Shown: positions 11,070-59,408, counted from the stretch's first letter. The stretch: DNA of 64,000 nt from Minisyncoccota bacterium (GCA_022841985.1 JALHQL010000006.1:16-64015); one strand, 5' to 3'. Program-made: numbers and translations. Notes: a model not told the origin generated them from the sequence alone.

Positions 11070-11164
11070 GGGGTTAGTGGACCGAAACTGCTATTCAACA
11101 GTCACACCGCATAATTGTGACAGCATAATCAGCTGCCGTCAGACGCTCCGATCGGACAATCGCC

Positions 11165-11254: not shown

Positions 11255-11317
11255 CGGCAGGCCTCCTTTTATTTGGTTATGCTACCAAAAGTTCTGTATC
11301 TGTAGCGGATTATACAC

Positions 11318-11349
11318 GAAAGCCCCCGCACGGATGTGCGGGGGCTTTC
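11318..11349. terminator. perfect 13-bp GC-rich hairpin immediately 3' of rplB
   Basis: gaaagcccccgcacggatgtgcgggggctttc, 13 nt after the rplB stop at 11362. No clear U-tract, so it may be an RNA-processing or attenuator structure. Confidence 0.4.
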
Positions 11350-11361
11350 GTGATTCTGAAA

Positions 11362-40808: not shown

Positions 40809-41129
40809 GTGTATGGTATAACACAACGCATGTATACGTATATGCATGACCTGTCACCGCTCTACTTCCCTCTTGCTCCTGAACTTATGCTCACGGTACT
40901 CCCCTTTCTTATTCTCGTCGCCATCTGGACACTCGCTGTCAAAGGCTACGCGCTCTGGCATGCTGCACGCAATGGGCAAAAAGGGTGGTTCATTGTTCTT
41001 CTCATTATAAACACGCTTGGTATTCTCGAAATCGTATACCTCATTTGGTTCCGTTCTGACAAAAAGAACGCTTCTTATCCTGTGCACGACTCGCATACGC
41101 CAGCGGTGAATTCATCACCGCAGGCATAG
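40809..41129 (+). CDS. small two-TM membrane protein
   Basis: LMLTVLPFLILVAIWTLAV and GWFIVLLIINTLGILEIVYLIWF. Confidence 0.4.
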   Translation: MYGITQRMYTYMHDLSPLYFPLAPELMLTVLPFLILVAIWTLAVKGYALWHAARNGQKGWFIVLLIINTLGILEIVYLIWFRSDKKNASYPVHDSHTPAVNSSPQA

Positions 41130-41171
41130 TAATAATTTTGAAGTCAGCTTCTGTGAATAAGTGAGCAGCGG

Positions 41172-41579
41172 TTGCCCCTACCACTTATAATTGATGCGAT
41201 GAGGGAAACCCAGAGAAAAGGAGACGTCGCTGTTTCGCAAGCGATTGCAACATTTACAAAAGCGGGTTATGACGTCTCTGTTCCCCTTACAGAATCAGCT
41301 GCATATGATTTAATCGTGGAGAGGGACGGATTGATAAAACGGATACAGGTAAAATATTCGACTAGTGGAGAGGTTGACCTTCGTAGAATTCATTCAAACT
41401 CGACTGGGTATGTTGTTAAGAAGCCTAAAAAAGGCGCTTATGATTGGATTTACGTCTTTAAAGCCCTCTCTGAAAAAGAGTATCTTATTATCGACTGCCC
41501 TTTCGGTCGGCGGTCGATAACACCTGGAGTTCAGCATTCTATTAAAGTCGTACTGAAACAATTAGGAGGGGTCGCATAG
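41172..41579 (+). CDS. small PD-(D/E)xK-like nuclease-fold protein (Hjc-type or restriction-endonuclease-like). Tentative.
   Basis: AAYDLIVERDGLIKRIQVKYS fits a D...E-x-K core. Its 3' end overlaps the tRNA-Ser 5' end by about 15 nt. Confidence 0.35.
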   Translation: MPLPLIIDAMRETQRKGDVAVSQAIATFTKAGYDVSVPLTESAAYDLIVERDGLIKRIQVKYSTSGEVDLRRIHSNSTGYVVKKPKKGAYDWIYVFKALSEKEYLIIDCPFGRRSITPGVQHSIKVVLKQLGGVA

Positions 41580-41653
41580 TTGGTCTAGTGCAGTGGACTT
41601 GAAATCCACCGTACCGTAAGGTACCGCGAGTTCGAATCTCGCCCCCTCCGCCA
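41565..41653 (+). tRNA. tRNA-Ser (anticodon TGA) with encoded CCA. Integration target of the adjacent island.
   Basis: ggagggg...cccctcc acceptor, anticodon loop ctTGAaa, long variable arm cgtaccgtaaggtaccg, T-loop ttcgaat, then gCCA. Confidence 0.85.
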
Positions 41654-43147
41654 AAATTGGAAATCGGAATTGGAAGCCGAAATGGGGTCGGCGCGAAGCG
41701 CCGACACAAACGCATTCCCGCCAAGAATTCCCGAATTCAAAAGGTTTTTCCACGCTCCGCGTGGCTCAAAAAAGACGGTTCGATCCTTAATTTGAAAGTT
41801 CGAACCGACTTTTTTGTACAAATGAAGTTTTTCTTCATTTGTACACTCGTTTGCCAATTCCATATTGTATTTCAAAAACTTTTCGGTAAGTTCGAACCGA
41901 TTATTCGCTTTTTGCTCAAAAGCCGATAATTTCTCTTTGAGAAGCTGTTTAGAGCTAACCAAGGCATTTTTGGCGTCGCGATATTCTTCGAGCGACAAAG
42001 CGTTTTCGAGATAAGCATTCATCAGCTTCTCAATCTTGGAATTCAAAAGAGAAATATCGGCTTTTGTTTTGTCTGCAAAAAGCGTAGACGATTGGGCTTC
42101 ACTCAACATATCTTTTCTATTTTCCGCCAACATCCAAGAAGCCCAATCGTCGGGCAAAGAAACTTTTTTGATTTCCTTTTGAATTTCTGAAGTGATGATT
42201 TCTTCGCGACTATACTTTTGTGCGCAAGGATTTTTCCGTTTGGTACATCGCAAATAGTTATGACCTTTCTGCGTTTCGGTGGTAATGAAGCAACCACATT
42301 CTCCGCAACGGAAAAATCCTCTGTACAAAAATGGTTTCAATCCTCGCGACTTCGGTTTAGATTTTCTCATCATCACTTCCTGAACAAAATCAAAAAGTTT
42401 CTTTGTGATAATCGGTTCGTGCTTTCCCTCAAAAATCTCACCATTATATTTCATCAGTCCTGTATAGATAGGATTTTTGAGAAGTTTTTGATAATTCGAC
42501 ACCGCAAGTTCCTTTCCGCTTTTTCGTTTCAATCCAAGTCCGTTAAATTTGTCGCGAAGCTCCCGCAAAGTGAAAGACCCAGACGAATATGCCTCAAATG
42601 TTTTCTTGATTAAGGGTGCGATATTTTTATCAACAACAATTCTCCCGCCGACATTTAGATAGCCAAGTGGAGACATTTGAGGCCATATTCCGTCTTTCAC
42701 TTTGTTTCGCTTACCACGCTTTATATTCTCACTAAGGTTATCTACATAATACTTGGATTGCGAAAAAGCGATGGAAAGCATGAATTTGCCTTGCGGTGTC
42801 GGATCACACCAGAAAGTTGGAAATTTTAGCTCGGCAAGTTTTTCCGTATCGAGCAAGTAGATAATTTTTCCACCATCAACACTATTTCTCGCCAATCTGT
42901 CGGGATGCCATGCCAAAATCCCATTTGCTTCGCCTTGCTCGATACGGAGAAGCATTTCATTAAATACTGGCCGACCTGGTGCTTTAGCAGTTTGTTTCTC
43001 TACAAAAATATCTACCACCTCGATTTGTTCTTTAACCGCCAACTCTTTGAGTTCGGCCAGTTGATCGGAAATGCTTCTCACTTGCCGATCCTCTGTATCG
43101 GTTGATTTGCGAGTGTATATAAAAAACTTTCTGGTGTGATTATTCAT
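41585..43147 (-). CDS. large serine recombinase (resolvase/invertase catalytic domain, recombinase domain, zinc ribbon)
   Basis: FIYTRKSTDTEDRQVRSISDQ (catalytic Ser region), GILAWHPDRLARN, zinc ribbon CGECGCF...YLRC. Start trimmed to MNNHTRKFF at 43147. The open frame continues through IR1-L and antisense through the tRNA, so the true C-terminus is uncertain. Confidence 0.8.
   Translation of the reverse strand: MNNHTRKFFIYTRKSTDTEDRQVRSISDQLAELKELAVKEQIEVVDIFVEKQTAKAPGRPVFNEMLLRIEQGEANGILAWHPDRLARNSVDGGKIIYLLDTEKLAELKFPTFWCDPTPQGKFMLSIAFSQSKYYVDNLSENIKRGKRNKVKDGIWPQMSPLGYLNVGGRIVVDKNIAPLIKKTFEAYSSGSFTLRELRDKFNGLGLKRKSGKELAVSNYQKLLKNPIYTGLMKYNGEIFEGKHEPIITKKLFDFVQEVMMRKSKPKSRGLKPFLYRGFFRCGECGCFITTETQKGHNYLRCTKRKNPCAQKYSREEIITSEIQKEIKKVSLPDDWASWMLAENRKDMLSEAQSSTLFADKTKADISLLNSKIEKLMNAYLENALSLEEYRDAKNALVSSKQLLKEKLSAFEQKANNRFELTEKFLKYNMELANECTNEEKLHLYKKVGSNFQIKDRTVFFEPRGAWKNLLNSGILGGNAFVSALRADPISASNSDFQFWRRGRDSNSRYLTVRWISSPLH
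41648..41767. repeat. IR1-L, a 120-bp inverted repeat whose outer end is the tRNA-Ser 3' terminus (CCGCCA)
   Basis: Exact reverse complement of 43170-43289, checked base by base. Confidence 0.9.
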
Positions 43148-43169
43148 AATATTGTATTGGCAAACGAGT

Positions 43170-43289
43170 GAGCCACGCGGAGCGTGGAAAAACCTTTTGA
43201 ATTCGGGAATTCTTGGCGGGAATGCGTTTGTGTCGGCGCTTCGCGCCGACCCCATTTCGGCTTCCAATTCCGATTTCCAATTTTGGCGG
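43170..43289. repeat. IR1-R, inverted copy of IR1-L, ending in GGCGG
   Basis: Perfect 120-bp match to the reverse complement of 41648-41767. Confidence 0.9.
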
Positions 43290-43558
43290 TGTGTATTGGA
43301 CGAAGTTCGAATGTATTTCGGACAAAATCCGCAGGATTTTGACGACTAATCGCACGCGCGGAGCGCGTGGTGGCTTGAAACTGCATTGTACGCTCCGATA
43401 CTGTGCCAACACGAACGAATGCGCCTCGGACACGCTCGCGGACTCGCGTGTGCAAAAACCAAAAAATTTCCTTGCATTTTTCTCGCGTCTCCTCCCCCCA
43501 CCCCTCCACCGCGAAGCGGAAAAAGAAATGGAAAGGAAATTTTTGGTTTTGCTTCGCC
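43285..43558. repeat. IR2-L, a 274-bp structured repeat starting at the shared GGCGG core
   Basis: Reverse complement matches 49219-49492 almost exactly. It has internal hairpins (cacgcgc-gga-gcgcgtg, caaaatcc-gcag-ggattttg) and an internal inverted copy of ggaaatttttggtttt. The ORFs predicted inside it are artefacts of repeat DNA. Confidence 0.85.
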
Positions 43559-43662
43559 GTAGCCATAACAATATTATTTTGCACACTTGTATTATAACTT
43601 AACATTGAGTCAAAACACAAGAGAGTGCTATAATTAACCATGTTGATAAGTTTTTATATAAT

Positions 43663-43872
43663 ATGGCAAAATCCACAGCACAAAAATTTGGTGAGAACAT
43701 GAAAAAGATACGGCTCGAAAAAGGTATGTCGCAAGGCGACATTTGCCGTGAGTTAGGGTTAGACCGAGCGTATATTAGTAATGTTGAGAATGGCAAACAA
43801 AATCTTACCATTAGCACAATGGAAAAGGTCGCCAAGGCGCTGAGTGTGAGTATTGATATACTTCTGAAATAA
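43663..43872 (+). CDS. XRE/Cro-type HTH protein, probably the controller (C) protein of the restriction-modification system
   Basis: 69 aa. MSQGDICRELGLDRAYISNVENGKQNLTISTMEKVAKAL. Directly upstream of the M and R genes. Palindrome ttgagtcaa lies about 40 nt upstream. Confidence 0.65.
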   Translation: MAKSTAQKFGENMKKIRLEKGMSQGDICRELGLDRAYISNVENGKQNLTISTMEKVAKALSVSIDILLK

Positions 43873-43879
43873 TAATCAT

Positions 43880-45544
43880 ATGGCAAAGTTAAAAGACACC
43901 CCAAAACATGATAGACCTCGCGAGAAATTTCTCGAAAAAGGAAGCGACGCTCTGACCGACAGTGAGTTGTTGGCTATTTTGCTTGGAAGCGGTATCAAAG
44001 GAACCAACGTCAAATTACTTGCACAAAAAATATCTCGAAAATTTGGTGACAAGCTCATGGATGCGACAGTGGAGGATCTCGTACAGATTCCGGGTATCGG
44101 AAATGCCAAAGCTCTGCAAATTGCCTCAATGTTTGCACTGGCAAATCGAATGTATGAAAAGCACAACGGGGATGAGGAGCACAAAGTATTATCGGCGCTT
44201 GATGCAGCACGATTAGTCCCCGAATTAAAAACCGCAAAAAAGGAACATCTGGTTTGTCTTTACCTTAATGCACGAAGTGTATTGGTTCACAAAGAGATTG
44301 TTTCAGTTGGCACATTGGACAAAAGTATTATTCACCCCCGAGAAGTTTTTGCGCCTGGACTTGAAAAGCACGCCGCGAGCGTCATAGTTATTCATAATCA
44401 CCCATCAGGCGACCCTTCACCGAGTGACGAAGATAAACAAGTTGCCGCTCGAATTGTCGAAGCAGGCAAAATTGTCGGTATCAACGTACTTGATTTTCTT
44501 ATTATCGCGGAGCGAGGTGTACACAGCATTCTCGCAGAGTTGCAAAAAGTTGAGCCGAAAGCAACCGATTATGTTGCCGAAGGCAACCAAGGATCACTTT
44601 TTGATCTGCTTGTGGATTCTCGCCATATGTATTTTCTCGGAGTAAACGATAAAGCACCCGAACCTATAACAAAAACCAAACATAAGTTTATCGATCTCTT
44701 TGCAGGTATTGGTGGTTTCCATGTTGCCTTTCATAATGCGGGCGCTGAATGTGTGTTTGTGTCCGAATGGGACGAAAAAGCGCGAACTACGTACAGACAC
44801 AACTTTTATAAAGTATCTCCCGATATATTTAGAAATGGCAATTTCGTTGGCGATATCACTAAGGTGAACGAAAAAGAAATGCCTGATTTTGACATCATTA
44901 CGGGCGGCTTTCCTTGCCAGCCATTTTCACAAGCAGGTTTCAAGAAAGGTTTTAATGAAGCACGCGGCACATTGTTTTTTGATGTAGTTCGCCTTATGAA
45001 AGAAAAGAAACCTAAGGCATTTTTCCTTGAAAACGTGCGGGGTCTTTACGCACACGATGGAGGAAAAACATTTGAAACAATTAAGCGCATCATTGAAGAA
45101 GATCTCGGCTATTCATTCCATGCAAAAATCATTAAAGCATCAGATTTTGGTATGCCACAACACCGTCCGCGTTTGTTTATGGTCGGTTTCAGGGACGGAC
45201 ATGATTTTGAATGGCCCGAACCAGTCAATGAATTGAAATACACAATGTCCGATATTTTCGGTGGAAAGTGTAATAAAGATGTCGGCTTTACACTTCGTGT
45301 AGGAGGTCGCGGAAGCCAGATCACTGATCGACGCAACTGGGACGCGTATCGCGTGGATGGAAAAGTAGTCCAGCTCGGACCTAAAGAGGGCTTGAAAATG
45401 CAAGGATTCCCCGAGTGGTTTGAGTTTCCTGAAGATGTATCGTCAGTACAGTCTATGAAGCAGCTCGGCAACTCTGTCGCTGTACCTGCAATTCAAGCTG
45501 TTGCGGAAAGAATAATTGAAACACTAGAAAAATATGACAAATAA
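43880..45544 (+). CDS. fusion protein of an N-terminal RadC-like JAB/MPN domain and a C-terminal C5 cytosine DNA methyltransferase
   Basis: RadC HhH (VQIPGIGNAKALQI) and JAMM motif (IVIHNHPSGDPSPSDED). MTase motifs I FIDLFAGIGGFHVAF, IV GGFPCQPFSQAG, VI ENVRGL, VIII QHRPRLFMVGF, X KQLGNSVAVP. Confidence 0.8.
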   Translation: MAKLKDTPKHDRPREKFLEKGSDALTDSELLAILLGSGIKGTNVKLLAQKISRKFGDKLMDATVEDLVQIPGIGNAKALQIASMFALANRMYEKHNGDEEHKVLSALDAARLVPELKTAKKEHLVCLYLNARSVLVHKEIVSVGTLDKSIIHPREVFAPGLEKHAASVIVIHNHPSGDPSPSDEDKQVAARIVEAGKIVGINVLDFLIIAERGVHSILAELQKVEPKATDYVAEGNQGSLFDLLVDSRHMYFLGVNDKAPEPITKTKHKFIDLFAGIGGFHVAFHNAGAECVFVSEWDEKARTTYRHNFYKVSPDIFRNGNFVGDITKVNEKEMPDFDIITGGFPCQPFSQAGFKKGFNEARGTLFFDVVRLMKEKKPKAFFLENVRGLYAHDGGKTFETIKRIIEEDLGYSFHAKIIKASDFGMPQHRPRLFMVGFRDGHDFEWPEPVNELKYTMSDIFGGKCNKDVGFTLRVGGRGSQITDRRNWDAYRVDGKVVQLGPKEGLKMQGFPEWFEFPEDVSSVQSMKQLGNSVAVPAIQAVAERIIETLEKYDK

Positions 45545-46625
45545 AACTAAAACAACTCTCACAGGTAACAAAGGCGAATGGTCTGAGTTCTATGCCTTTA
45601 TTAAAATCCTGACTGACGGGAAAGTTTTTACTGCTGACAAAAATCTAAAAATCCTTGAGGAACATTTTCATATTGTCCTAAAAATTATCCGACAAGAAGC
45701 GATTGGAAAGAAAGAATACGACATCTCAAGAAACGATGGCAAAGTTATTGTATCTGATGAAAATGCAGAGATATCAATAATTGATCTTGAAAAAATCAAA
45801 GGGAGTGTCGCCAACGTTTTTGAGCAAATTAAAAATTCCAAAGGCACGACATTTGAAGTCGCGAGCGCGGCAAGTCCGATGCACGATCTTCACTGTACTC
45901 AAATGCGTGCTTCGAGTGGTAAAAAAGCCGACTTGACCATTGTTCTGCATGATAAAAAATCTCCCGAATTCCCAGAACTCGGTTTCAGTATCAAATCAAT
46001 GCTCGGTTCTCCGGCAACACTCCTAAATGCTTCTGGTGCTACAAATTTTCTATACCGCATTGCAACAGAAGATAATAAGCCCGTACAAAGTAGTGATGAT
46101 ATGTCGGTGAGAGATGCGACAAAACTGACGTATGGTGTCGGTGCACAACTTGAGTTTATTGGAATGGATAGCGATGTTTTCCGTCGTAATCTGCGAAAAA
46201 TTGATTCCATATTTCCCGAAATAGTTGCTCAAATGTTGCGACATTACTACATGGGAGAAGCGACTACAATCAATGATCTCGCAAACAAAATTGCAGATGA
46301 TTCCGTCTTTATGGAGCGAATCGACTTTACCAAAGAAATGCTGATAATGAACATCAAACGTTTCCTATCAAGCATTGCCCTCGGAATGATGCCAAGCAAA
46401 GATTGGGACGGATACACCGAAGCGCATGGCGGATATATCATCGTTAAAGAAGACGGTGATGTTGTCTGCTACCATCTCTATAACCGCGACAAATTTGAGG
46501 ACTATCTATTCCATAACACAAAACTCGATACGCCTAGCACTACTCGTCATGGATTTGGGAAAATCTATAAAGAAAATGACGAACAAAGAATGAAGCTTAA
46601 TTTACAAATACGATTTTTGAAATAA
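45534..46625 (+). CDS. probable cognate type II restriction endonuclease (363 aa). Family not assignable by eye; an HpaII-like family is possible.
   Basis: Start overlaps the MTase stop (ATGACAAATAA). Size and position fit an R gene. No catalytic motif is confidently identified. Confidence 0.45.
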   Translation: MTNKTKTTLTGNKGEWSEFYAFIKILTDGKVFTADKNLKILEEHFHIVLKIIRQEAIGKKEYDISRNDGKVIVSDENAEISIIDLEKIKGSVANVFEQIKNSKGTTFEVASAASPMHDLHCTQMRASSGKKADLTIVLHDKKSPEFPELGFSIKSMLGSPATLLNASGATNFLYRIATEDNKPVQSSDDMSVRDATKLTYGVGAQLEFIGMDSDVFRRNLRKIDSIFPEIVAQMLRHYYMGEATTINDLANKIADDSVFMERIDFTKEMLIMNIKRFLSSIALGMMPSKDWDGYTEAHGGYIIVKEDGDVVCYHLYNRDKFEDYLFHNTKLDTPSTTRHGFGKIYKENDEQRMKLNLQIRFLK

Positions 46626-46803
46626 AAAATTGCCAGATGTTGTGTAAGCAAGACAATCGAACGAAGTTGGGGAAATAAGCCACAAAGCGAAAAGTGCTTG
46701 ATTTGTATTGATAAGAGAGTAATCCTTACTTTGGCGCTTGACTCCTTATTTTAAGGCGCGTATAATAGATACGCGGTTATTTATTTTACTTATCAATCAA
46801 TTT

Positions 46804-47031
46804 ATGGAAGAAAAATCATCGGTAAATAAGTCAAAAATTGAGAAAAAGATGAACGTTATCATTTCTTTGCTTTTGAAAATTGCAAATGATGGGGGTACGG
46901 TAAGTCTAAAAGAGCAAGTGCGTGACCTTGCCTCATTTGGTTTGGATTCAGCAGAGATTGCCGAAATTACAGGTAAAAAGGTGGGGCATGTTAGTAAAGA
47001 ATTATCAGTATTAAAAAAGGAGAGTAAATAG
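46804..47031 (+). CDS. mini HTH protein 1 (75 aa), first of four tandem paralogs
   Basis: MNVIISLLLKIA...FGLDSAEIAEITGKKVGHVSKEL. Lrp/AsnC-like or sigma70-region-4-like HTH. Confidence 0.5.
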   Translation: MEEKSSVNKSKIEKKMNVIISLLLKIANDGGTVSLKEQVRDLASFGLDSAEIAEITGKKVGHVSKELSVLKKESK

Positions 47032-47034
47032 CCT

Positions 47035-47256
47035 ATGGAAAACAAAAATGACATTTTACAACAAGTCTCGAAGAAACTGAGTATTTTAATCGCACTCCAG
47101 CTTCAGGGTGAGAATAAAGTGGTTGAGGTAAAAGAAAACGTGGAAAAACTTTCCAGATTCGGACTTACAGACAGTGAGATCGCAGAAATCCTCGGCACCA
47201 CAGCAGGTACCGTATCAGTTGCTAAAGCTAGAATTAAAAAAGCTAGATCAAAATAA
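47035..47256 (+). CDS. mini HTH protein 2 (73 aa)
   Basis: LSILIALQLQGE...FGLTDSEIAEILGTTAGTVSVAKARIKK. Starts 3 nt after the paralog 1 stop. Confidence 0.5.
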   Translation: MENKNDILQQVSKKLSILIALQLQGENKVVEVKENVEKLSRFGLTDSEIAEILGTTAGTVSVAKARIKKARSK

Positions 47257-47259
47257 AGT

Positions 47260-47436
47260 ATGGCAAAGAATAAACAAAATCGTGATCCCCTTGAAGACGT
47301 GCGAGAAACTCTAAAAAGTATTCTCGTACTAGAATTATTTAAGTTAAATATTCCGCAGGTGGATATTGCTAAAAAGTTGCGAATGGACTTAAACGCGGTG
47401 AATGCCTTCCTGAAAGGAATTAAGAAAGATAAATAA
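47260..47436 (+). CDS. mini HTH protein 3 (58 aa)
   Basis: LKSILVLELFKLNIPQVDIAKKLRMDLNAVNAFLKGI. Below the ORF-track size cutoff. atg at 47260, taa at 47434-47436. Confidence 0.4.
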   Translation: MAKNKQNRDPLEDVRETLKSILVLELFKLNIPQVDIAKKLRMDLNAVNAFLKGIKKDK

Positions 47437-47437
47437 T

Positions 47438-47602
47438 ATGGGTAGAAAAACTAAAAGCGAAAAACTGGAGCCTTTGGAGGAGATTAAACGACTACTTGTT
47501 CTCGGGCTTATAAATCAGGGCGTAAAAGGAAAAGACATCGCCGCCATTCTGGAGGTTGATCCAGCAATTATTAGTCGTTTGATTTCATCTACGAAAAAAT
47601 AG
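47438..47602 (+). CDS. mini HTH protein 4 (54 aa)
   Basis: IKRLLVLGLINQGVKGKDIAAILEVDPAIISRLI. atg at 47438, 1 nt after the paralog 3 stop. Confidence 0.4.
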   Translation: MGRKTKSEKLEPLEEIKRLLVLGLINQGVKGKDIAAILEVDPAIISRLISSTKK

Positions 47603-47605
47603 TAT

Positions 47606-48184
47606 ATGGCAGACCGACTCAACCCCGACATTATGGAGGTACTCGTTAAGAAGACGGATAAGACAGCCGAACAAATTCGTCCGCGCCTCTCTGAACTTCG
47701 TCGCAAGTATAGCGGTCTCACAATGAACGCTGCTGCTCAGATGTACGCACAATCGCACGGCACTTCCATTATGACGAAGCTTGACCAAGGCGACCGACAA
47801 TCGCTCGCTACGGTACAAGCAATTACTCAAGTGAGCGTATCCAGCGTTTCAAAGGTAGATAAACGCACGCTAAATATAAATAACTCGCCGATACATAACC
47901 TTTCATTTGGTGACCGAAATCAAATAAATCAAAGTGTTGTGACGCTCGACAATGCACTCACTGAGTTATCTGAAAAAATCAGCAAAAGCACAGTACTGAC
48001 TGACGACGAAAAGAATGACTACAAGTCTGATATACAAACTATTGCAAGTCAGGCTGGAAAAAGTAAACCGAACAGGCAAATCATCAAAGTAGCATGGGAG
48101 AGCGTTAAGGCGCTTGCGGACATAGAAGGCTTTGCCCAATTGGTCGGCAGGATTACTCCGCTTATTCAAGGATTTTTTTCATAA
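47606..48184 (+). CDS. hypothetical protein (192 aa), upstream partner of the HEPN-like protein
   Basis: Stop at 48184, next start at 48186. The N-terminus resembles the mini-HTH proteins weakly. Confidence 0.45.
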   Translation: MADRLNPDIMEVLVKKTDKTAEQIRPRLSELRRKYSGLTMNAAAQMYAQSHGTSIMTKLDQGDRQSLATVQAITQVSVSSVSKVDKRTLNINNSPIHNLSFGDRNQINQSVVTLDNALTELSEKISKSTVLTDDEKNDYKSDIQTIASQAGKSKPNRQIIKVAWESVKALADIEGFAQLVGRITPLIQGFFS

Positions 48185-48185
48185 T

Positions 48186-48887
48186 ATGTCTCAACGCCTT
48201 GATCCAATTCTATTAAAGAAACTTGCCGATAAAATTGGTAAGTCCATCAAATATACGCGCGAGCAAAATGCCAAACGTGCTTCAAGAGCGGGCGTTTCTT
48301 CCGAAGCCTATTTTTTATATTGGCTGAAAGAAAAGAAAATTGGCTTTCAAAAGTACAAGCGTTCTTTGCCTGTTGATGTTCAAAACGAAGCAAGAACACT
48401 CACAGGCACTCCACAACACACAACAAGCACCACATCTAATCGTGTGGGACACACCGAAACACTCACTGCTTCATCGCGCTATATCGATTTACTCGAAATG
48501 ATTCAGGATGATGAGCTTAGAGATAGATGTGCGGATCTTATAAAACGACCAAGGAATCATGACAGAGTTTTTAGAGAAGCCACAACTATTCTTGAACATC
48601 GGGTCAAGAATTTGAGTGGTATTACACAAAGAATGAACCCGCAAGCATTAATTGGGAAAGCAATTGCGCCTGATCCTGCGCGAGCTATTTTAGTGGTCAG
48701 CAGTGATTCCAGTGAGCAAGAAGGTTTTTACAAAATTTGCGCTGGTATTGAAGCAGCATTCCGCAACCGCACCCATCATGAAGTCTCGAACAAGCTCACA
48801 CGTAATGACGCGATAAAATTTTGTGGCTTCATTGACTCACTGTTACTTGTGCTTGTTAATGCAGAAGTACATCAAGAACGGATTTAG
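48186..48887 (+). CDS. protein with a C-terminal HEPN-like (Abi_C / TIGR02391-like) domain. Candidate abortive-infection RNase.
   Basis: C-terminal EQEGFYKICAGIEAAFRNRTHHE contains R-x4-H. Start atg at 48186. Confidence 0.45.
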   Translation: MSQRLDPILLKKLADKIGKSIKYTREQNAKRASRAGVSSEAYFLYWLKEKKIGFQKYKRSLPVDVQNEARTLTGTPQHTTSTTSNRVGHTETLTASSRYIDLLEMIQDDELRDRCADLIKRPRNHDRVFREATTILEHRVKNLSGITQRMNPQALIGKAIAPDPARAILVVSSDSSEQEGFYKICAGIEAAFRNRTHHEVSNKLTRNDAIKFCGFIDSLLLVLVNAEVHQERI

Positions 48888-49218
48888 CTAAAGGGAGCCG
48901 TCCACGTCAGTGGACGGGCTTCTGTGCGCGCATAGGGTGGGTGGGGCAAGCACATACAGATTTGTTTGTGCCCTAGCACAATCCATTTTTCTTTGAGTAA
49001 CTACTAACCTCTCTCGAAGTCACTGAGCGAACGCACACAACGCCGAAGCAGCCAGCGCGAGCGAATGCGAGCGGGCTATGTGTAGGCGGTTGTGTGTGTT
49101 CGCGGACGTTAGAGCTACTACTAAACGTCGCTATGGCACGCGCCTCGGTCGCCACAAGGAAATGGAGCAAACGGGCTTCAATGTGATAACTTTGTTGCCC
49201 TTTGTGGAGTTTCCTTGT

Positions 49219-49492
49219 GGCGAAGCAAAACCAAAAATTTCCTTTCCATTTCTTTTTCCGCTTCGCGGTGGAGGGGTGGGGGGAGGAGACGCGAGAAAAA
49301 TGCAAGGAAATTTTTTGGTTTTTGCACACGCGAGTCCGCGAGCGTGTCCGAGGCGCATTCGTTCGTGTTGGCACAGTATCGGAGCGTACAATGCAGTTTC
49401 AAGCCACCACGCGCTCCGCGCGTGCGATTAGTCGTCAAAATCCTGCGGATTTTGTCCGAAATACATTCGAACTTCGTCCAATACACACCGCC
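49219..49492. repeat. IR2-R, inverted copy of IR2-L, ending in CCGCC followed by A
   Basis: 274 bp. Base-by-base reverse complement of 43285-43558. Confidence 0.85.
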
Positions 49493-49672
49493 AGAAGTCC
49501 GAGTTAGAACCAAAGCAAAGTAAGGGTTTTAATACAACTAAACTCAAAATAAAACATCCATCTAAAATATGGGTGTTTTGCTTATTGGTGGCACTTATCC
49601 ACAATAGGGCACTTTACAAGAAAGAGATAATTGTATAGGATCATACTATCACTTAACAGCTATCATTAATTT

Positions 49673-51340
49673 ATGAAAAACACCGAGGAAAATAAAATTG
49701 AAACAATAGACATTACTCCCGATAAAAGCATTTATCACAAAATCGGGGAGGCAAATTACTCGATTTCTGACGCACTCGCAGAATTAGTGGATAACTCAAT
49801 TGATGCCGCAAATGACAATGGTGTCGAGATTTATATCGTTTTAGACAAGAAAGACGAGAAAATTGTCATTGAGGACAATGGAAAGGGAATGAGCAAAGAA
49901 ATAGCTTCAAAAAGCTTGGTACTAGCCCATTCTAAAAAGCACGAGGCACTAGGTGAATTCGGTTTGGGACTAAAGTCCGCATGCACCAGTTTAGGAACAA
50001 TCTTTTCTATAACAAGTACACCTGAAGGTTCTGAAGAAAGATACTCTCTTGAATATAATAAGGAACAATTTTTAAAATCAGATGACTGGCATCATTACCC
50101 TCTCGCAATATCAAAAGCTCCAAAAAATGAACACGGAACAAGAATAGAAATCAGTAATTTGCGAATAAAATTATATGACGCTCAAGTAACACGTCTCAAG
50201 GATGACTTAGCTAAAAGATATGGACCATACATTGAACACAACAATGTTGTCATTAAAGTTGGTTTAAAAAGAGAGACGGCAAAGCCTTGTGTGCCAAGTG
50301 AAATTAAACTCGTTGAAGGTTCGAAGAAAGAATTTTCATACATGCTCTCAAAAGGAGCCACCATTACAGGTTGGTATGGTTTATCAGAGGTCGGATCACA
50401 AAAACAAAGTGGTTTTAATATGTTTCGTAGGGGGCGTCTTATACGATCATCGGAAAAGCTTGGTTATAATTACCACCCACATCTAATGAGTATTGTCGGA
50501 GAAATTAATTTGGACTCCGTCCCAGTCACACATAACAAACGAGAATTTATTATTGAATCAGGGGAATTCAAAGAGTTTATTAAAGAATTCTGGGGTGATC
50601 AGACCGAGAAATATTTAGGCCAAAAAGTGAAGGGAATGATTGATGAAGTAACAAAGACAGCTAGAGATCGATCAAACCAAGAAAAAGCTGATAGCATGCC
50701 GACTGAAAAGAAAGAGACTATAAAAAATAACTTATTGAATGCTCTTAACCGACTAGACGAATTCAAAGAGCTGGCCTATCCAGATCTGTATCAACCTAAA
50801 AAAAGGTCTGCGAGCGGAAAAGAGGACCCAAAAGAATCAAGAGAAACTGATTTACGTGTAGCCAGGGAGGAAGAAATCAAACCTACAAAAGAGGAGGAGA
50901 GGGATCAGAGAACGCCCAAAAAAACACAACCAAAAACGGCCAAATTTATCATGGTTGGTGGAAAAAAATTCAAATTCGATTTCTTTTTGAAGAATTTGGC
51001 AAATGACACCATCGACAAAGAGACAGTTATCAATCAGGAAAACGTTATTGAAATATACATTAATACGGGATTTAAAGGTTACGGCTTGACGAAAGATTCT
51101 GATTTTTATTCTACTTTCCACATAGCAGAGGCGATTGCTGAACTTTATGTTAAAGAAGCTGGTCAAAAAATGGAAAGGGTCTTTGAATTACGAAACGGTC
51201 TTATATATGAAGTGGCGTCGTTAATCTATGAAGAAGAAGAGTATAAGAAACTAGAGAAGACTGAAAAAGAACTAGTCGCAGTAACTGAAAAGAGGAAAGA
51301 GTTGGAAGAAAAAAGAACAAGAACAAGTTTAAAAATATAA
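49673..51340 (+). CDS. GHKL-superfamily ATPase (HATPase_c_3, prokaryotic MORC-like) with a charged coiled C-terminal region
   Basis: N-box ELVDNSIDA, G1 IEDNGKGM, G2 GEFGLGLKSA. Confidence 0.75.
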   Translation: MKNTEENKIETIDITPDKSIYHKIGEANYSISDALAELVDNSIDAANDNGVEIYIVLDKKDEKIVIEDNGKGMSKEIASKSLVLAHSKKHEALGEFGLGLKSACTSLGTIFSITSTPEGSEERYSLEYNKEQFLKSDDWHHYPLAISKAPKNEHGTRIEISNLRIKLYDAQVTRLKDDLAKRYGPYIEHNNVVIKVGLKRETAKPCVPSEIKLVEGSKKEFSYMLSKGATITGWYGLSEVGSQKQSGFNMFRRGRLIRSSEKLGYNYHPHLMSIVGEINLDSVPVTHNKREFIIESGEFKEFIKEFWGDQTEKYLGQKVKGMIDEVTKTARDRSNQEKADSMPTEKKETIKNNLLNALNRLDEFKELAYPDLYQPKKRSASGKEDPKESRETDLRVAREEEIKPTKEEERDQRTPKKTQPKTAKFIMVGGKKFKFDFFLKNLANDTIDKETVINQENVIEIYINTGFKGYGLTKDSDFYSTFHIAEAIAELYVKEAGQKMERVFELRNGLIYEVASLIYEEEEYKKLEKTEKELVAVTEKRKELEEKRTRTSLKI

Positions 51341-51341
51341 A

Positions 51342-52754
51342 ATGAGTCAGACCCTTAAGCGAGCAAACGAATATTTTGGGGTAACTGAGTCTGACTATAA
51401 GAAGACTGGCGCATTTAATCCGGTCATCGGTGTAGACAGCTTATTTTTTGTAGATCCGCTACTGCTCTCTAAAACAAGAATACCTGAGTTCAAGGATGCT
51501 CAAAAAGAGGTGCGTGATTATTTTGCTAGTGTCATCACACTTATCAGAAGTGGTAATCAAAAAGCAAAAGCACTAGCTCACAAGAAACTTATTTTAAGAG
51601 AGGTTAGGGGTATCGGCATAGGTTACGGTAGTACATCTGATGATGGTTCCGCCATTGGTCCAAAACTTGCAAAACGTTTGTTAAATACTGCAGAGGAACT
51701 CATCCAGATGGGTATTACCGATCCAGCCATCTTTGAAGTCATGGGTCTTTTTGAGGAAGATTTTGGGCCAGATCGACTTAGTGACGGCTTGACACGCATT
51801 CTTCTCAAACGCGTCTGCCAATATTCTGAACGAATCACGAAAGAACTCAAAATTATAGATACATATACACTAACTACTTATGAGAGAAAGTACACTCTAA
51901 CAAAACACCCCCTTAAAGATGGGCCTTTGCTTTTCGTGCCCCAAGGCATATTGCGAGATCTCCCGATAGCGAATAGTTTTGAGGAGATTAGTGTAGTTGC
52001 AATTTTTAATGAAGATCTGAGAAAGAAATTTAATTCTATTCTGGCATCCTGTTTTGCTGGAGATAAAAATAAAAAGCCCAAGAAATCTGAAATTAAGAAA
52101 TATCTCCTAGAAACGAAAGATGGAATCAAAACAGTTGTTGCGGCATATCAGTCATGTAGTCCTGAATCGTATAATTTTGACACCGATCCTTCTGGTTTAT
52201 ATCTGTGGCTTGAGAAAGCAAAACAGTTAGCTCGTGAGAACCCAATTTCACTTCCATCAAAACCAAAACAAGGTGATATTGATGATGTGGTACAGAAAGT
52301 TATACAGGCATTTAAAAGAGGAATTGAATCTAAGGGTTGGTGGAAATCACTTTATAACGAGAGTAAGGAATCACTGAATGAAAGCCACGCAAGACATTTC
52401 TTTTATGCAACCGCGCTCTTGTATTGCGAAGCATGTGATATTGATATTTCACCCGAATCAAATGCTGGTCAAGGTCCAGTAGATTTCAAATTGAGCCGTG
52501 GTCACAAAAAGATAGTTGTTGAAATAAAATTAACTTCAGGACATGTTCGACAAGGTTATGAAAAACAAACACGAATATATGAAGAAAGTGAAGATGCTGA
52601 AGCTAGTTATTTCCTTGTTGTTCAAGTAACAGAGAAAAGTAAAGTTCTGCAAAAGGTGCTTAAAATGGAGGAAGTGGAAGAAAAGGAGGGTAAAAAACAC
52701 CCGACAATCGTAGTTGTGGATGGGCGAGAGAAACCGTCAGCAAGTCACGCCTAG
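51342..52754 (+). CDS. partner protein (470 aa) with a C-terminal PD-(D/E)xK nuclease-like motif
   Basis: GQGPVDFKLSRGHKKIVVEIKLTSG fits PD...(E)xK. Start is 2 nt after the GHKL stop. Confidence 0.5.
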   Translation: MSQTLKRANEYFGVTESDYKKTGAFNPVIGVDSLFFVDPLLLSKTRIPEFKDAQKEVRDYFASVITLIRSGNQKAKALAHKKLILREVRGIGIGYGSTSDDGSAIGPKLAKRLLNTAEELIQMGITDPAIFEVMGLFEEDFGPDRLSDGLTRILLKRVCQYSERITKELKIIDTYTLTTYERKYTLTKHPLKDGPLLFVPQGILRDLPIANSFEEISVVAIFNEDLRKKFNSILASCFAGDKNKKPKKSEIKKYLLETKDGIKTVVAAYQSCSPESYNFDTDPSGLYLWLEKAKQLARENPISLPSKPKQGDIDDVVQKVIQAFKRGIESKGWWKSLYNESKESLNESHARHFFYATALLYCEACDIDISPESNAGQGPVDFKLSRGHKKIVVEIKLTSGHVRQGYEKQTRIYEESEDAEASYFLVVQVTEKSKVLQKVLKMEEVEEKEGKKHPTIVVVDGREKPSASHA

Positions 52755-52924
52755 TCATATTTACTTTTCAATAGAATAATCAACTGCATTTTGCCCTTTA
52801 TCTGAGTTTGGTTTAGGCGTCTCAAACCACTCCGGATGCTCCTTATGCATTTTCCTCAGTTTTTGTATACTTGTATCAAGAATCCAGAAATTAAAGCGTC
52901 TTTTTGGTTCTAATTTCGGGACAT

Positions 52925-53106
52925 CGTCACCGCCGCGAAGCGGAAAAAGAGGAAAGGAAATTTTTGGTTTGCCTGCGCGAGTCCGCGAGCGCGGTCGAGG
53001 CGCGTTCCAGCGCAATCGGAGCGTACGCTTCGGGTTCAAGCCACCACGCGCTCCGCGCGTGCGAAGTGGGTTCGAGCAAAGGTGATACACTCACCGCCTC
53101 AAAAGA
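52925..53106. repeat. third, degenerate IR2-family copy, ending in CACCGCC
   Basis: cgcgaagcggaaaaagaggaaaggaaatttttggttt...gcgcgagtccgcgagcg...ccaccacgcgctccgcgcgtgcg...caccgcc aligns to IR2 with indels. Confidence 0.6.
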
Positions 53107-53196
53107 AGATATTGAGTGCGCTGAAGTGGTTGCAGCTTGTACACAAAAACGCACAGAACAATTCTGCCGTGCCATACTCTCTGCTATTATTCCCTC

Positions 53197-53670
53197 ATGA
53201 CTCGCGAAGCGATTTTAGAATGGAAAGGAAGAGAATACGATCATAATCCCAAAAGCGCCGATTGGTATTGGGCACTTGGCATCATTGCGGTCGCCGGCAC
53301 TATAGCAGCAATACTTTTCGGCAGTTACCTGATCGCGATGCTCATTGTCATCGCAACAGTATCGATCGCACTCCACGCCGCAAAACAACCACCCCTGCAT
53401 CGCTTTCGTCTTGTCGAGCAAGGCATCGTCATCGGCGACGAGCTGCATCCTTTTGCACGAATGACCTCCTTCTCTGTGCTTGAAGACATCGAGGGAACGC
53501 TCCCTCCGATGATTTCCATAAAAACTGATAGTTGGCTCTCGCCGCACCTCGTCATTCCGCTTGAGGGTGTTGATGTTGATATGGTATATGCCTACTTCCT
53601 CCATCATGTTGATGAAGAAGCCCACCATCACACGTTCGTCGATTTGGTGGCGGCGTGGCTCAGATTCTGA
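53197..53670 (+). CDS. two-TM membrane protein with a His-rich C-terminus
   Basis: WYWALGIIAVAGTIAAILFGSYLIAMLIVIATVSIALHAA. Start MTREAIL at 53197. Confidence 0.4.
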   Translation: MTREAILEWKGREYDHNPKSADWYWALGIIAVAGTIAAILFGSYLIAMLIVIATVSIALHAAKQPPLHRFRLVEQGIVIGDELHPFARMTSFSVLEDIEGTLPPMISIKTDSWLSPHLVIPLEGVDVDMVYAYFLHHVDEEAHHHTFVDLVAAWLRF

Positions 53671-53685
53671 TATACATTCACTATT

Positions 53686-53760
53686 GCCCCCGTCGTTCAA
53701 CGGATAGGACGCGAGCTTGCGGAGTTCGTAATCGAGGTTCGATTCCTCGCGGGGGCACCA
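53686..53760 (+). tRNA. tRNA-Arg (anticodon read as GCG) with encoded CCA
   Basis: Acceptor gcccccg/cgggggc, D-arm gttc/ggac, anticodon loop ttGCGga (G37), T-arm cgagg-ttcgatt-cctcg, then aCCA. Confidence 0.6.
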
Positions 53761-53916
53761 AGTAGGAAAGGACGGTTGATTTATTGAGAACCTGCTGCGC
53801 AGAAGATTTTTGTCGCGCTTGAGACAAAACAAGGAATATGCTCTACTTTATCTAGATTAGTAATGAGCCATTTCGGCTCTGTAGGACATTCTCAAACAAA
53901 AAAAGGAGGTTCGACC

Positions 53917-54261
53917 ATGAAGAGATGCTCTGTAGAGGAATTGAAACAGAACGGCGAAGAGACTCCTGAGTCTATCCTCGCCCACGCCCAATGGAGGAAA
54001 TCGCGAGGTCGCAATCCGAGCAAGGGTTACAAGGGCCAGAACAATCCTAGAAAGGCATTGGCTCTTGCTATCAAGGATTTTCTGTTCAATTGCTACAAGA
54101 TCGCAGCTCGCAAGTGGCTCAGCGACCTGCGCGAAAGCACCAGCCAGTACAGAAAGCTCAGTCGCTACATCCGCAAGGCAGCTCGGAGGGGCAAATTCTT
54201 GCTCGCCGAGATCGGCACTAGCGAGAGGGAGCTCCGGTCGTTCACCAAGATTCCGACCTAG
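53917..54261 (+). CDS. hypothetical basic protein (114 aa)
   Basis: AGGAGG Shine-Dalgarno 7 nt before the ATG at 53917. Confidence 0.4.
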   Translation: MKRCSVEELKQNGEETPESILAHAQWRKSRGRNPSKGYKGQNNPRKALALAIKDFLFNCYKIAARKWLSDLRESTSQYRKLSRYIRKAARRGKFLLAEIGTSERELRSFTKIPT

Positions 54262-54371
54262 TTTCAGTCGATTCGCGTTTCTCAATCAAAGCCCCAAGTG
54301 GAATTCAATCCGCTTGGGGCTTTCACTTTTTCTAAGTGATATTGTGCGAAGTATGGTGTTACACTTTCCTT

Positions 54372-55292
54372 ATGGATGCTGAGGCGGCAAAACGACAGTT
54401 TCTTGAATATATCGAGATTGAACGCGGCCGTGCAGTAAAGACTATTGAGAATTATGACCGCTATCTCACCCGCTACTTCACCCAGATGAAGATACAGAAC
54501 GTAAGCGGCATTAGCGAACAGAGTATTCGAGAGTTCCGCCTCTGGCTCAATCGGCAGCCGGGTACGGCTGCCGATTCCATGAAGCGCCGCACTCAGAATT
54601 ACTACATGATTGCACTCCGCGCCTTTCTCAAGTTTCTCCGAAAACGCGATATTGCTGCCATTTCTCCTGAGAAAATAGAGCTTGCGAAGCTTCCTGAGCG
54701 ACAACTTGACCTTATTACTTCTGCCGAACTAGAACGTCTTATACAAGCACCTAGAGAAGCATTTAAGAAAGAAAAAGACCCTGACAAAGCAAGGTCCTAC
54801 TTGCGAGATACTGCGATTCTCGAACTATTATTCTCCACCGGTCTGCGCGTCTCCGAGCTCTGTGCACTCAATTCTGATATTGATTTAACGCGCGACGAGG
54901 TTTCGGTGCGCGGCAAAGGCGAGAAAGTCCGTGTCGTATTCCTCTCCCCTACTGCGAAGCAGGCTGTACGCGAATACCTCAAGGCAAGAAATGACATGGA
55001 AGAAGCTTTGTTCGTAGATGGCAGACCAAACAAATTGCACCGCATCATCCCCCGCGACGTCCAACGGCATTTGAAATCATATGTAGCGCGGGCGGGTATC
55101 ACAAACGTCGTTACGCCGCACACCCTCCGTCACGTCTTCGCCACAGATCTTCTGACTAATGGCGCCGACATCCGCTCTGTCCAACAACTCCTCGGTCATG
55201 CTTCCATCAACACGACCCAAATTTACACACACATCACTGACTCGCACCTACGAGAAATCCATAAAAAATTCCACGGACAGAAACGCACATAA
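54372..55292 (+). CDS. tyrosine site-specific recombinase, XerC/XerD-like
   Basis: N-terminal SAM-like domain, and the catalytic C-terminus HTLRHVFATDLLTNGADIRSVQQLLGHASINTTQIYTH. Confidence 0.8.
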   Translation: MDAEAAKRQFLEYIEIERGRAVKTIENYDRYLTRYFTQMKIQNVSGISEQSIREFRLWLNRQPGTAADSMKRRTQNYYMIALRAFLKFLRKRDIAAISPEKIELAKLPERQLDLITSAELERLIQAPREAFKKEKDPDKARSYLRDTAILELLFSTGLRVSELCALNSDIDLTRDEVSVRGKGEKVRVVFLSPTAKQAVREYLKARNDMEEALFVDGRPNKLHRIIPRDVQRHLKSYVARAGITNVVTPHTLRHVFATDLLTNGADIRSVQQLLGHASINTTQIYTHITDSHLREIHKKFHGQKRT

Positions 55293-55338: not shown

Positions 55339-56277
55339 TTATTGTGGAGGAAGATCGTTCGAAGATTCGGTCGTTGAGTCGGCAAGCGGCGGATCGGACG
55401 GAGTCGTCTCATCAGTTTGGCTAACTGGTGGAACAGTTATCGCACCATCTTCTGACGGGGGATCATTCTCAAGAGACGGCGTTTCTGTTAGCTCAGACGA
55501 GGAAGTCTCTTCTTTCTCTGAATCCTCAATCGGCGGAGCTGGATTAGTCGAAATTTCCTCGATCGTCAGGGAATCTTCAAGACTTTGAGTAAGTTGAGGC
55601 AAGGGGTCCGTTTGAGTTATCGGGGCAATTACCGGAAGATCGGCGGTAAGAGTGAGGACGATATGTTCTGTATCGTGATACCCAGCCCCAGCCGTCCCTC
55701 CCTCTTGATAGGCCTCGTACTTGAGATCGAGCACGCATTTTTGACCATCAACGACTCCTGGAGCTGGACTTGGCAGAGAAAGCGCGAGAGACCATGGAGT
55801 AAATGCGCTGGTATCGATCGTGGAAAACGAAACTACTGAGCCCAGGTAGGCTAGGGGATCGCTTCCCGCTGCGTTAATGGCGGCACAAAACGTCGCATTG
55901 CCCGAAGCGGTGCCAGAAACCTTATATCGCATCGGGAGAGAACCAACTACAGGAGTTGGAGTAAGTACAAATGTTTCTCCTGGCTGAGCAAGAAAAAGTG
56001 TTGCGGAGTCACGGTCAGACGTCACCGTGAAATCAAGCGGGCCCGCTGCAAATGTATTTCCAGTCGACTGCTCATTGTCCCTGAAATAAGAGCTGGTCCC
56101 TCCTATCGAAAGAAGCGTCGGGACCGCGATAACCGCCAAGAGAGCAATTGCGACGATTGGTGAACGATGTACTCGTTTCTCTATGGGCGTAGAAACTGTT
56201 ACCCGACGAGGTATAAACATGTCCGACATGTCCGACGACCGCTCGTACACTATCGTTGTGAAGGGTATCTTTTTCAT
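55339..56277 (-). CDS. TasA/camelysin-family secreted protein with a SipW-cognate-class signal peptide. True start may be Met at 56229 or 56220.
   Basis: AIALLAVIAVPTLLSIGGTSSYFRDNEQSTGNTFAAGPLDF matches the SipW-cognate signal motif. Confidence 0.6.
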   Translation of the reverse strand: MKKIPFTTIVYERSSDMSDMFIPRRVTVSTPIEKRVHRSPIVAIALLAVIAVPTLLSIGGTSSYFRDNEQSTGNTFAAGPLDFTVTSDRDSATLFLAQPGETFVLTPTPVVGSLPMRYKVSGTASGNATFCAAINAAGSDPLAYLGSVVSFSTIDTSAFTPWSLALSLPSPAPGVVDGQKCVLDLKYEAYQEGGTAGAGYHDTEHIVLTLTADLPVIAPITQTDPLPQLTQSLEDSLTIEEISTNPAPPIEDSEKEETSSSELTETPSLENDPPSEDGAITVPPVSQTDETTPSDPPLADSTTESSNDLPPQ

Positions 56278-57835: not shown

Positions 57836-57852
57836 GACGTTATGTCATTGCA

Positions 57853-59301: not shown

Positions 59302-59408
59302 AAAATTGTGTGTAATTTAATAATTTCCCTTACTGGTTTCCCTTCCAGCCCGCCGGGCCCCAGCAGTCGGGGCTCGGAACGGCTAAAGAGAACTTACTAC
59401 TACTGTGC

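Follow-up and report, generated by a model that had tools for sequence, protein, structure and literature searches.

A tRNA-Ser-associated mobile element of a Minisyncoccota bacterium with a recombinase gene that appears to span its own attachment site

The 64,000-nucleotide stretch of DNA analysed here (the window; Minisyncoccota bacterium, GCA_022841985.1, JALHQL010000006.1:16-64015) carries an island of genes at the 3' end of a tRNA-Ser(TGA) gene. The island comprises a large serine recombinase (LSR) gene, two pairs of inverted repeats (IR1 and IR2), a restriction-modification (RM) cargo and, further out, a module with a GHKL-type ATPase gene. A preliminary description, made from the sequence alone, had reported a single serine recombinase and a short core shared with the tRNA 3' end, both of which were found again, and had read the island as a series of defence cassettes, each bounded by its own repeats. 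According to the present analysis, positions 41648-49493 are probably one complete integrative mobile element and positions 49494-53105 the leftover of an earlier, related insertion; this judgement includes the integration cycle proposed below.

Organisation of the tRNA-Ser island

The tRNA-Ser(TGA) gene, the integration target, occupies positions 41565-41653 on the plus strand (ARAGORN and Rfam), and its T loop, TTCGAA, lies 11 nucleotides (nt) upstream of a CCGC core. The last six nucleotides of the gene, CCGCCA (41648-41653, plus strand), form site 1 of the element, in which the minimal core of the family, CCGC, corresponds to 41648-41651. The arms of IR1 are called X and those of IR2 Y, with a prime for the inverted copy. 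The outer X arm (41648-41768) and the inner X arm (43169-43289) are 121 nt long and 100% complementary according to the repeat finder. The LSR gene lies between them on the minus strand (41585-43147), its start codon 21 nt from the inner arm, and encodes 520 amino acids in the integrated form, whose 3' end is altered. The inner X arm meets the inner Y arm (Y', 43284-43558; repeat finder and sequence reading), and the outer Y arm (49219-49493) closes the element at attR. The repeat finder extended IR2 to 43281-43558 and 49219-49496; as a mismatch (g at 49494) falls within the last 3 nt, the perfect repeat is 275 nt long (43284-43558 and 49219-49493).

The motif CCGCCA recurs in inverted orientation where the inner arms meet (43284-43289) and in direct orientation at the end of the outer Y arm (49488-49493), and a further CCGCC lies at 53101-53105, directly after 52930-53100, where the end of IR2 is present in diverged form (blocks of 83-90% identity). 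Direct cores thus begin at 41648, 49488 and 53101. The association of perfect repeats with a CCGCC(A) core at every boundary was correctly described at the outset and, given its recurrence in about 160 loci, is more than chance. No further copies of IR1 or IR2 were found in the window. An Rfam scan of positions 41000-54500 yielded tRNAs only, and the Y arm folded as RNA was of unremarkable stability (z = -1.27).

Between the Y arms, all genes are encoded on the plus strand. The first, an XRE/HTH_3 (helix-turn-helix, HTH) regulator gene (43663-43872), is divergent from the LSR gene and is preceded by a strong promoter-like site (43605-43634). It is followed by genes for a RadC-Dcm m5C methyltransferase (43880-45544; DNA_methylase, E=1e-77) and an HpaII-family endonuclease (45534-46625; RE_HpaII, E=6e-107), which PADLOC called MTase_II and REase_II. 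An identical RM module is present in SRR22388336. The remainder of the cargo (46738-48887) consists of four small open reading frames (ORFs), a gene for a 192-amino-acid protein (weak PDC-M14B match) and a gene for a Hypoth_Ymh protein. Promoters are situated inside the cargo and terminator-like hairpins after it. The outer module (49494-52929, plus strand) contains genes for a GHKL/MORC-like ATPase (49673-51340, plus strand) and a 470-amino-acid partner (51342-52754, plus strand; weak PDC-M36A match), and is followed by an element end with a core (52930-53105, plus strand).

The gene content is essentially that first described, domain searches having recovered the LSR, the HTH_3 protein, the methyltransferase, the endonuclease and the GHKL ATPase with its partner. 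The four genes called mini-HTH genes exist as small ORFs; their HTH identity comes down to weak, sub-threshold matches. The proposed controller-methyltransferase-endonuclease system retains its latter two components and loses the first: 31 loci have a small XRE/HTH gene beside the inner Y arm, oriented divergently to the LSR gene and regardless of the cargo, and since it is kept there with many non-RM cargoes it is read as a backbone gene of the element. Likewise, the term defence island describes the window and does not extend to the family, in which the cargo (1.5-6.4 kb) is diverse and includes transporters, Ddl ligase, nitroreductase, ArsR and others.

Distribution of the layout and probable serial insertion

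The follow-up sample drew on species-representative genomes and on metagenomes, with 80 loci from each (loci L002-L161), in which junctions were analysed by self-comparison, tRNA scans and nhmmer profiles of both repeat ends. The layout recurs in about 160 loci of independent assemblies, including complete chromosomes (OZ246398.1 and OY969413.1). These loci belong to the candidate phyla radiation (CPR/Patescibacteria), and the recurrence marks the window's element as a member of a family and not a local oddity. On the recombinase-sense strand the order is flank, core', Y', cargo, Y, core, X, LSR gene, X', core' and the reverse complement of tRNA-Ser. Only three classes of junction were encountered, namely tRNA/X (about 130), Y/X (about 126) and Y/flank (about 54); no others were present in the roughly 160 loci. 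Copies occur exclusively at tRNA 3' ends or in arrays there, which, with the lack of additional copies in the window, argues against the alternative that the repeats are an insertion sequence, a transposon or a genome-wide miniature inverted-repeat transposable element (MITE). A literature search found no account of this CPR element family, which is widespread and apparently undescribed.

The tRNA/X junctions involve any tRNA-Ser isoacceptor and, once, tRNA-Asp(gtc) (L087:4335-4411), whose 3' end reads TTCGAG-N11-CCGCCA; the target is therefore defined by the motif and not by the identity of the tRNA. ARAGORN called a tRNA-Ser with anticodon ACT (A at position 34) in L037, L038, L040, L054, L060, L065, L070 and others; in bacteria such an anticodon is unusual, and the calls may be either genuine or misreadings. 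Paired X arms are perfect in 68 of 129 cases and 97-99.9% identical in 30 more, compared with a median of 77.5% between loci. The Y arms have a median length of 207 nt, and 32 of 44 pairs are at least 99% identical. Judged by these identities, the arms evolve in concert, matching within loci yet differing between them.

In about 130 loci the LSR gene reads towards the tRNA; the opposite orientation was seen in at most one to three (L121, L155 and L158). In four loci (L037, L038, L039 and L075, at about 9780-11590 in each) an LSR segment with both X arms and no cargo lies between two convergent tRNA-Ser genes with different anticodons, which points to the LSR as a possible driver of chromosomal inversions or deletions between the tRNA-Ser loci of CPR genomes. 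Among contigs from metagenomes and metagenome-assembled genomes, a large proportion have the LSR gene 100-350 nt from the contig end; many of these contigs end at the repeats of the element, which therefore probably breaks short-read assemblies. Several contigs with the element were deposited as Gammaproteobacteria, Bacteroidia, Actinomycetota or Bdellovibrionales, which may reflect mis-binning.

The outer module of the window (49494-53105) has neither a recombinase gene nor inner arms and ends in a variant of the right end, Y2, with the arrangement TTCGAG-N17-CCGCC. The stretch that had been taken for a decayed IR2 copy is accordingly a right end belonging to another, older variant of the element. 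In L070 and L126, homologues of this distal Y2 end directly abut X, and arrays with the newest element nearest the tRNA occur in five loci (L070, L027, L030, L138 and L150). Based on the Y2 right end and the arrays elsewhere, the GHKL pair is most likely a remnant of an earlier insertion, and the early suggestion of serial accretion at the tRNA holds. Newer elements would insert beside the tRNA and push older ones outward; with an unconserved right half-site, the tRNA/X junction can plausibly be targeted again.

The L070 array consists of three LSR elements, one of a distant type. Perfect direct repeats with a partial tRNA-Ser 3' fragment follow elements in L047 (1753-1810 and 2673-2730) and L070 (4698-4888 and 8273-8463), and such truncated tRNA copies seem to act as secondary insertion sites within arrays.

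The recombinase gene and its attachment site

The LSR contains a resolvase domain (PF00239, residues 9-154, E=1.6e-20), a Recombinase domain (PF07508, residues 177-259) and a zinc ribbon (PF13408, residues 274-326). The motif YTRKSTD, in which the R-x-S-T serine motif is present, identifies residue 15 as the candidate catalytic serine. Long helices are predicted at residues 333-433 in a low-confidence model; AlphaFold2 applied to the full-length 519-amino-acid LSR with a shallow 20-sequence alignment gave a mean pLDDT of 46, unusable for the tail. SprA and A118 Int were distant structure matches, and the top NCBIfam match, CcrB, scored 98 bits, far below the cut-off of 900. More than 7800 homologues were found, the best 120 of which are 82-96% identical and come from many CPR classes. 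No relatives were found in a scan of IMG/VR, and annotated phages and plasmids contained only LSRs of less than 31% identity. Exact-protein look-ups of the LSR and of three versions of host proteins returned no record. The LSR frame is intact up to residue 500 in more than 140 integrated loci, and a conserved -10-like TACAAT lies 3 nt before the start codon.

The minus strand of the outer X arm codes for LSR residues 460-500 approximately. At the tRNA junction the frame enters the tRNA in antisense (RGRDSNPR...) and terminates 2 to more than 30 codons further on; in the window these are residues 501-520, with the stop at 41585-41587. To judge from its sequence, this tRNA-antisense tail looks like junk. 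Within X', a stop in the LSR frame occurs in only 1 of 121 distinct arms, compared with 58 and 120 of the 121 for the other two frames. The core is read in the same frame in 154 of 155 copies (TGG-CGG, i.e., W-R), and the frame closes beyond the core in 144 of 148. Read over X'-core'-Y', it yields a conserved tail of 16-19 residues, C[VL]LD[EK]VRxYFxQNP.., with a conserved stop; 97 of the 102 distinct Y ends have this stop at codon 15-20. In this Y-encoded tail the third-codon positions vary most, and the synonymous share of single-nucleotide codon differences is 0.46, against 0.20 for random differences and 0.27 and 0.15 in control frames. Database proteins of 519 amino acids carry exactly this full-length tail, the full-length form ending in ...FQFWRCVLDEVRMYFGQNPQDFDD.

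The arms are consequently not the borders of independent cassettes, as had been supposed: X holds the penultimate 40 or so codons of the LSR gene, and the core-proximal 60 nt or so of Y its last codons (19 plus the stop in the window, 16-19 across the family). As the LSR frame is unclosed in X' and completed in Y', attP (Y-core-X) lies within the recombinase gene. At the level of sequence it is thereby shown that the native LSR gene spans attP and that integration would replace its C-terminus with tRNA-antisense residues; this gene-spanning structure of the putative element is well supported. In the window, the displaced last 19 codons and stop, CVLDEVRMYFGQNPQDFDD, remain intact inside the outer Y arm (49428-49487, minus strand). 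A second, spare copy of the LSR 3' end lies detached just upstream of the gene and faces away from it (43170-43349, plus strand). It comprises the last 59 codons (about 58 elsewhere in the family), reads EPRGAW...FQFWR followed by CVLDEVRMYFGQNPQDFDD and a stop, and spans an inverted, intact attP with the core GCGG at 43286-43289.

The junction comparison shows the tRNA/X junction to be attL and the Y/flank junction to be attR. The initial view that attL and attR direct repeats are lacking is thus superseded, both being present with direct cores of 4-6 bp, as is normal for an LSR. By the same comparison, the inner X'/Y' junction is shown to be equivalent to the predicted junction of an excised circle, i.e., an intact second attP in inverted orientation. 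The Y end has a T-loop-like TTCGAA 16 nt from the core, compared with 11 nt for the T loop of the tRNA, and this difference is general, with TTCGAR-N11-core in tRNA-Ser and tRNA-Asp and TTCGAR-N16-core in Y. The crossover core common to the three sites shrinks to 4 nt, CCGC, and the right half-sites (the first 30 nt or so of X and the host flank) are unconserved.

A second LSR clade, 39% identical, is represented by an element at tRNA-Ala(ggc) with the core CCAC, directly beside a tRNA-Ser element (L013:11632-15062). It shares the double-repeat layout and the N11/N16 spacing, and its related tail, DILNVARTHFERNC, is closed by a stop. The tail motif common to both clades is [IV]L[ND]x[AV]Rx[HY]FxxN.

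Two GC-rich tri-loop hairpins were observed in X (alignment A1 columns 42-56 and 103-117; window 41689-41703 and 41750-41764). The first shows three fully compensated pair changes among variants. The loop of the second is flipped (TCC instead of GGA) in L009 and L081, as though the palindrome had been inverted.

Genes flanking the island encode PilM, RuvX and a Xer-like recombinase and, together with the names of homologues, indicate a CPR/Patescibacteria host. On the side of the tRNA-Ser gene opposite the island, an ORF of 135 amino acids resembling PD-(D/E)XK_5 and homing endonucleases (41172-41579) ends 15 nt inside the 5' end of the tRNA gene. The Xer-like tyrosine recombinase gene (Phage_integrase and SAM_1; 54336-55292) lies about 1.2 kb past the distal end of the island, after tRNA-Arg(gcg), and probably encodes the host XerC/D. 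Unrelated direct repeats of 145-274 nt occur at the start of the window (14-2168, spacings 285 and 1725). Further unrelated repeats at 56018-60241, recurring about every 1 kb between 57.5 and 60.2 kb, resemble the repeated domains of a large gene.

Proposed integration cycle, alternatives and related systems

In the proposed cycle, the LSR would insert the element at the 3' end of tRNA-Ser. Because this insertion would use the attP at the 3' end of the gene, it would remove the conserved tail and lock the orientation. Recombination between site 1 at the tRNA and site 3 at attR would excise a circle of about 7.85 kb, rebuilding the full-length LSR gene and leaving a predicted empty site in which ...CCCCCTCCGCCA is joined to GAAGTCC. 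The circle would carry two inverted attP repeats of about 400 bp. The recombinase segment could also flip between the identical X arms, either through homologous recombination of the host or through LSR action at the tRNA site and the inner attP. Such a flip would join the gene in frame with the spare X'-core'-Y' and so re-arm the LSR without prior excision. Recombination of the inner attP with a second tRNA-Ser gene is predicted to produce an LSR segment between two tRNA-Ser genes, the arrangement found in the four loci described above, and the inner attP accordingly appears, from such arrangements, to be active.

Our preferred idea, offered as a hypothesis, is that the spare copy may act as a re-arming device. 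This would explain why the whole 3' coding end is duplicated instead of a site of about 50 bp, why long arms are held identical and why the layout is kept in two distant LSR clades. The near-fixed orientation of the LSR gene fits a self-locking end state and not random use of two equivalent attP copies. In its fullest form, in which truncation silences the enzyme, gene conversion holds the spare end identical and inversion relaunches excision, the element would provide the first equivalent of the archaeal 'suicidal' integrases among bacterial serine recombinases, together with a built-in solution to their paradox; we put this forward tentatively, as possible rather than probable. If it is true, a directionality switch would arise from DNA geometry alone, with no separate directionality factor, and the resident inner attP would drive chromosomal inversions between CPR tRNA-Ser genes as a side effect.

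Several points weigh against the reading of the locus as an element with this cycle. Random use of both attP copies predicts that half of the LSR genes read away from the tRNA, whereas at most one to three do so against about 130, so the model needs the added assumption that the other orientation state is unstable. The few loci of opposite orientation are short contigs of short reads, in which an exact repeat of 120 nt is hard to phase. In a rare Y2 end variant a stop follows directly after the core, and some members may lack the tail. Finally, a profile search found no remnant of X or Y' at the left edge of the older module; a likeness of this edge to the L024 flank, seen by eye and taken as a possible X remnant, was unsupported by that search.

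Three mechanistic variants were considered and set aside. Orientation-blind recombination through the palindromic CG of the crossover is contradicted by the lack of any tRNA/Y' or X'/flank junction in the roughly 160 loci. Single-stranded hairpin, self-priming or hairpin-capped intermediates would, by reasoning, predict chromosome-scale palindromes or a single-stranded recombinase gene. The idea that read-through switches the LSR on after inversion is weakened by the terminator-like hairpins after the cargo and by the -10-like TACAAT before the start codon.

The strongest alternative, which is nevertheless considered unlikely, grants the second attP no re-arming role. It would be a by-product, an autoregulatory LSR site, an insulator or part of a 2-micron-like circle with two isomers, and the truncated LSR would stay fully active or become excision-proficient, the change of tail setting directionality. 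The frames intact up to residue 500 in the more than 140 integrated loci are in keeping with this, as are the three covarying pairs of the X hairpin, the possible weak promoter formed by the conserved TTGCCAATACAAT immediately ahead of the start codon, and the precedent of phage Mx8, in which the change at the int 3' end modifies the integrase rather than killing it (PMC6070905). Yet a site of about 50 bp would suffice for such roles, which leave unexplained why arms of 120 nt and of 200-275 nt stay identical and why two LSR clades of 39% identity have both kept the entire 3' coding end in frame.

A cassette-shuffling locus, in which each repeat pair bounds an independently invertible or exchangeable module, one recombinase acts on all of them and inversion, for phase variation of defence genes, is the chief purpose, is the next candidate. 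The ability of repeat-bounded segments to take the other orientation, as first suggested, was borne out by L025 and L059, where the cargo is reversed relative to the LSR gene; elements with near-identical arms differ in cargo, and inversion of symmetric modules regenerates the same junctions. Such reversals are rare, however: 31 loci keep the HTH gene beside the inner arm and one or two have it flipped, and the LSR gene has its usual orientation in about 130 loci against at most three. Promoters lie inside the cargo, so that a flip alters no obvious expression, and the repeats are explained as LSR 3' end plus attP. Moreover, LSRs that are nearly identical are found in numerous CPR classes and next to various tRNA-Ser isoacceptors, which indicates horizontal mobility rather than a domesticated switch. 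The shuffling model is accordingly regarded as quite improbable.

It is very improbable that the locus is a pair of neighbouring transposons or MITE-like units that have long terminal inverted repeats and use the serine recombinase as transposase. Both units do have perfect terminal inverted repeats and abut, and assemblies often break at the repeats; against this, there are no target-site duplications, a single core of 4-6 nt is common to both units in place of separate ends, other copies are absent from the window, solitary units and X'/X or Y/Y' junctions are absent from the 160 loci, insertion is always at a tRNA TTCGAR-N11-CCGC, and the arms are recombinase coding sequence. An assembly artefact, i.e., perfect inverted repeats from mis-joined population variants, is hardly credible: perfect identity over 121 and 275 nt is unusual, and a Logan contig covers the cargo flanked by the IR2 arms incompletely (window about 43531-48972, starting 28 nt inside the inner arm and ending about 250 nt before the outer arm, so that one end only matches the repeat), but both X arms are present in 129 loci and both Y arms in 44, from differing assemblers and samples and including the two complete chromosomes, and the arms match within loci while differing between them.

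Taking the locus, as preferred here, as an LSR element with its attachment site inside the recombinase gene, the closest functional analogue is the staphylococcal cassette chromosome (SCC) with its Ccr recombinases. In both systems a conserved housekeeping gene receives the cargo at its 3' end through the action of an LSR, and the distal half-site varies; since insertion restores the target, elements accumulate in tandem between short direct repeats. SCC differs in its target (rlmH instead of a tRNA), lacks long inverted repeats and has its attachment site outside the recombinase gene.

As regards an attachment site within the gene, the archaeal 'suicidal' tyrosine integrases come closest. SSV-type integrases (SSV1, pTN3, pT26-2) have the attachment site in the gene, so that integration partitions it and excision rebuilds it; they target tRNA genes, are linked to chromosomal inversions between tRNA genes and were called exclusive to Archaea in a 2021 review (PMC8371274). 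They are tyrosine recombinases of the Phage_integr_3 type, split mid-gene into inactive halves, whereas the CPR element has a bacterial serine recombinase, loses only the last 16-19 codons and carries an inverted spare end. A bacterial case of integration swapping the C-terminus of an integrase is myxophage Mx8, in which attP lies inside int and integration creates a new int 3' end, altering the properties of the integrase (PMC6070905). Mx8 int is a phage tyrosine integrase, and the phage shows no inverted duplicate of attP and the 3' end and no cassette accretion. The inverted spare attP with the 3' end is absent from SCC/Ccr, the archaeal suicidal integrases and Mx8.

The phage LSRs (A118/LI, TP901-1, Bxb1, phiC31 and SPbeta SprA) share the order resolvase-recombinase-zinc ribbon, a long helical insertion and a tiny core. 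They are 25-30% identical to the CPR enzyme, and the CPR element is further set apart by having no evident separate directionality factor, an attP inside the gene and a second, inverted attP. In work on the LI integrase (A118/LI), the recognition motif is reportedly 5 bp more distant from the core in attP than it is in attB; the spacings N16 in Y and N11 in the tRNA show this same 5-bp offset. In the Mu Gin/S gene system and the R64 shufflon, which use small serine or tyrosine recombinases and short sites, inverted repeats lie in coding sequence and inversion attaches another C-terminal exon. Here, the flipping gene would be that of the recombinase itself, the inversion being a prediction. The element does not match a Hin/Gin-type invertase (about 190 amino acids, C-terminal HTH, sites of about 26 bp, enhancer), having an LSR of more than 500 amino acids and repeats of 121 and 275 nt. 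The predicted circle also has a likeness to the yeast 2-micron plasmid in consisting of two unique segments parted by two inverted recombination-site repeats.

Genomes of the ultra-small CPR/Patescibacteria are tiny, and gene exchange among these bacteria is poorly understood; to our knowledge, no conjugation machinery is known from them. With at least hundreds of loci, the element family looks to be a major vehicle for RM and other accessory genes in this group. It would extend integration that disrupts the integrating element's own gene from archaeal tyrosine integrases to bacterial serine recombinases. It also suggests control of directionality with no accessory protein, which is relevant to large serine integrases as genome-engineering tools, and its simple target motif (T loop-N11-CCGC), together with a sequence-defined attP, makes the system directly testable.

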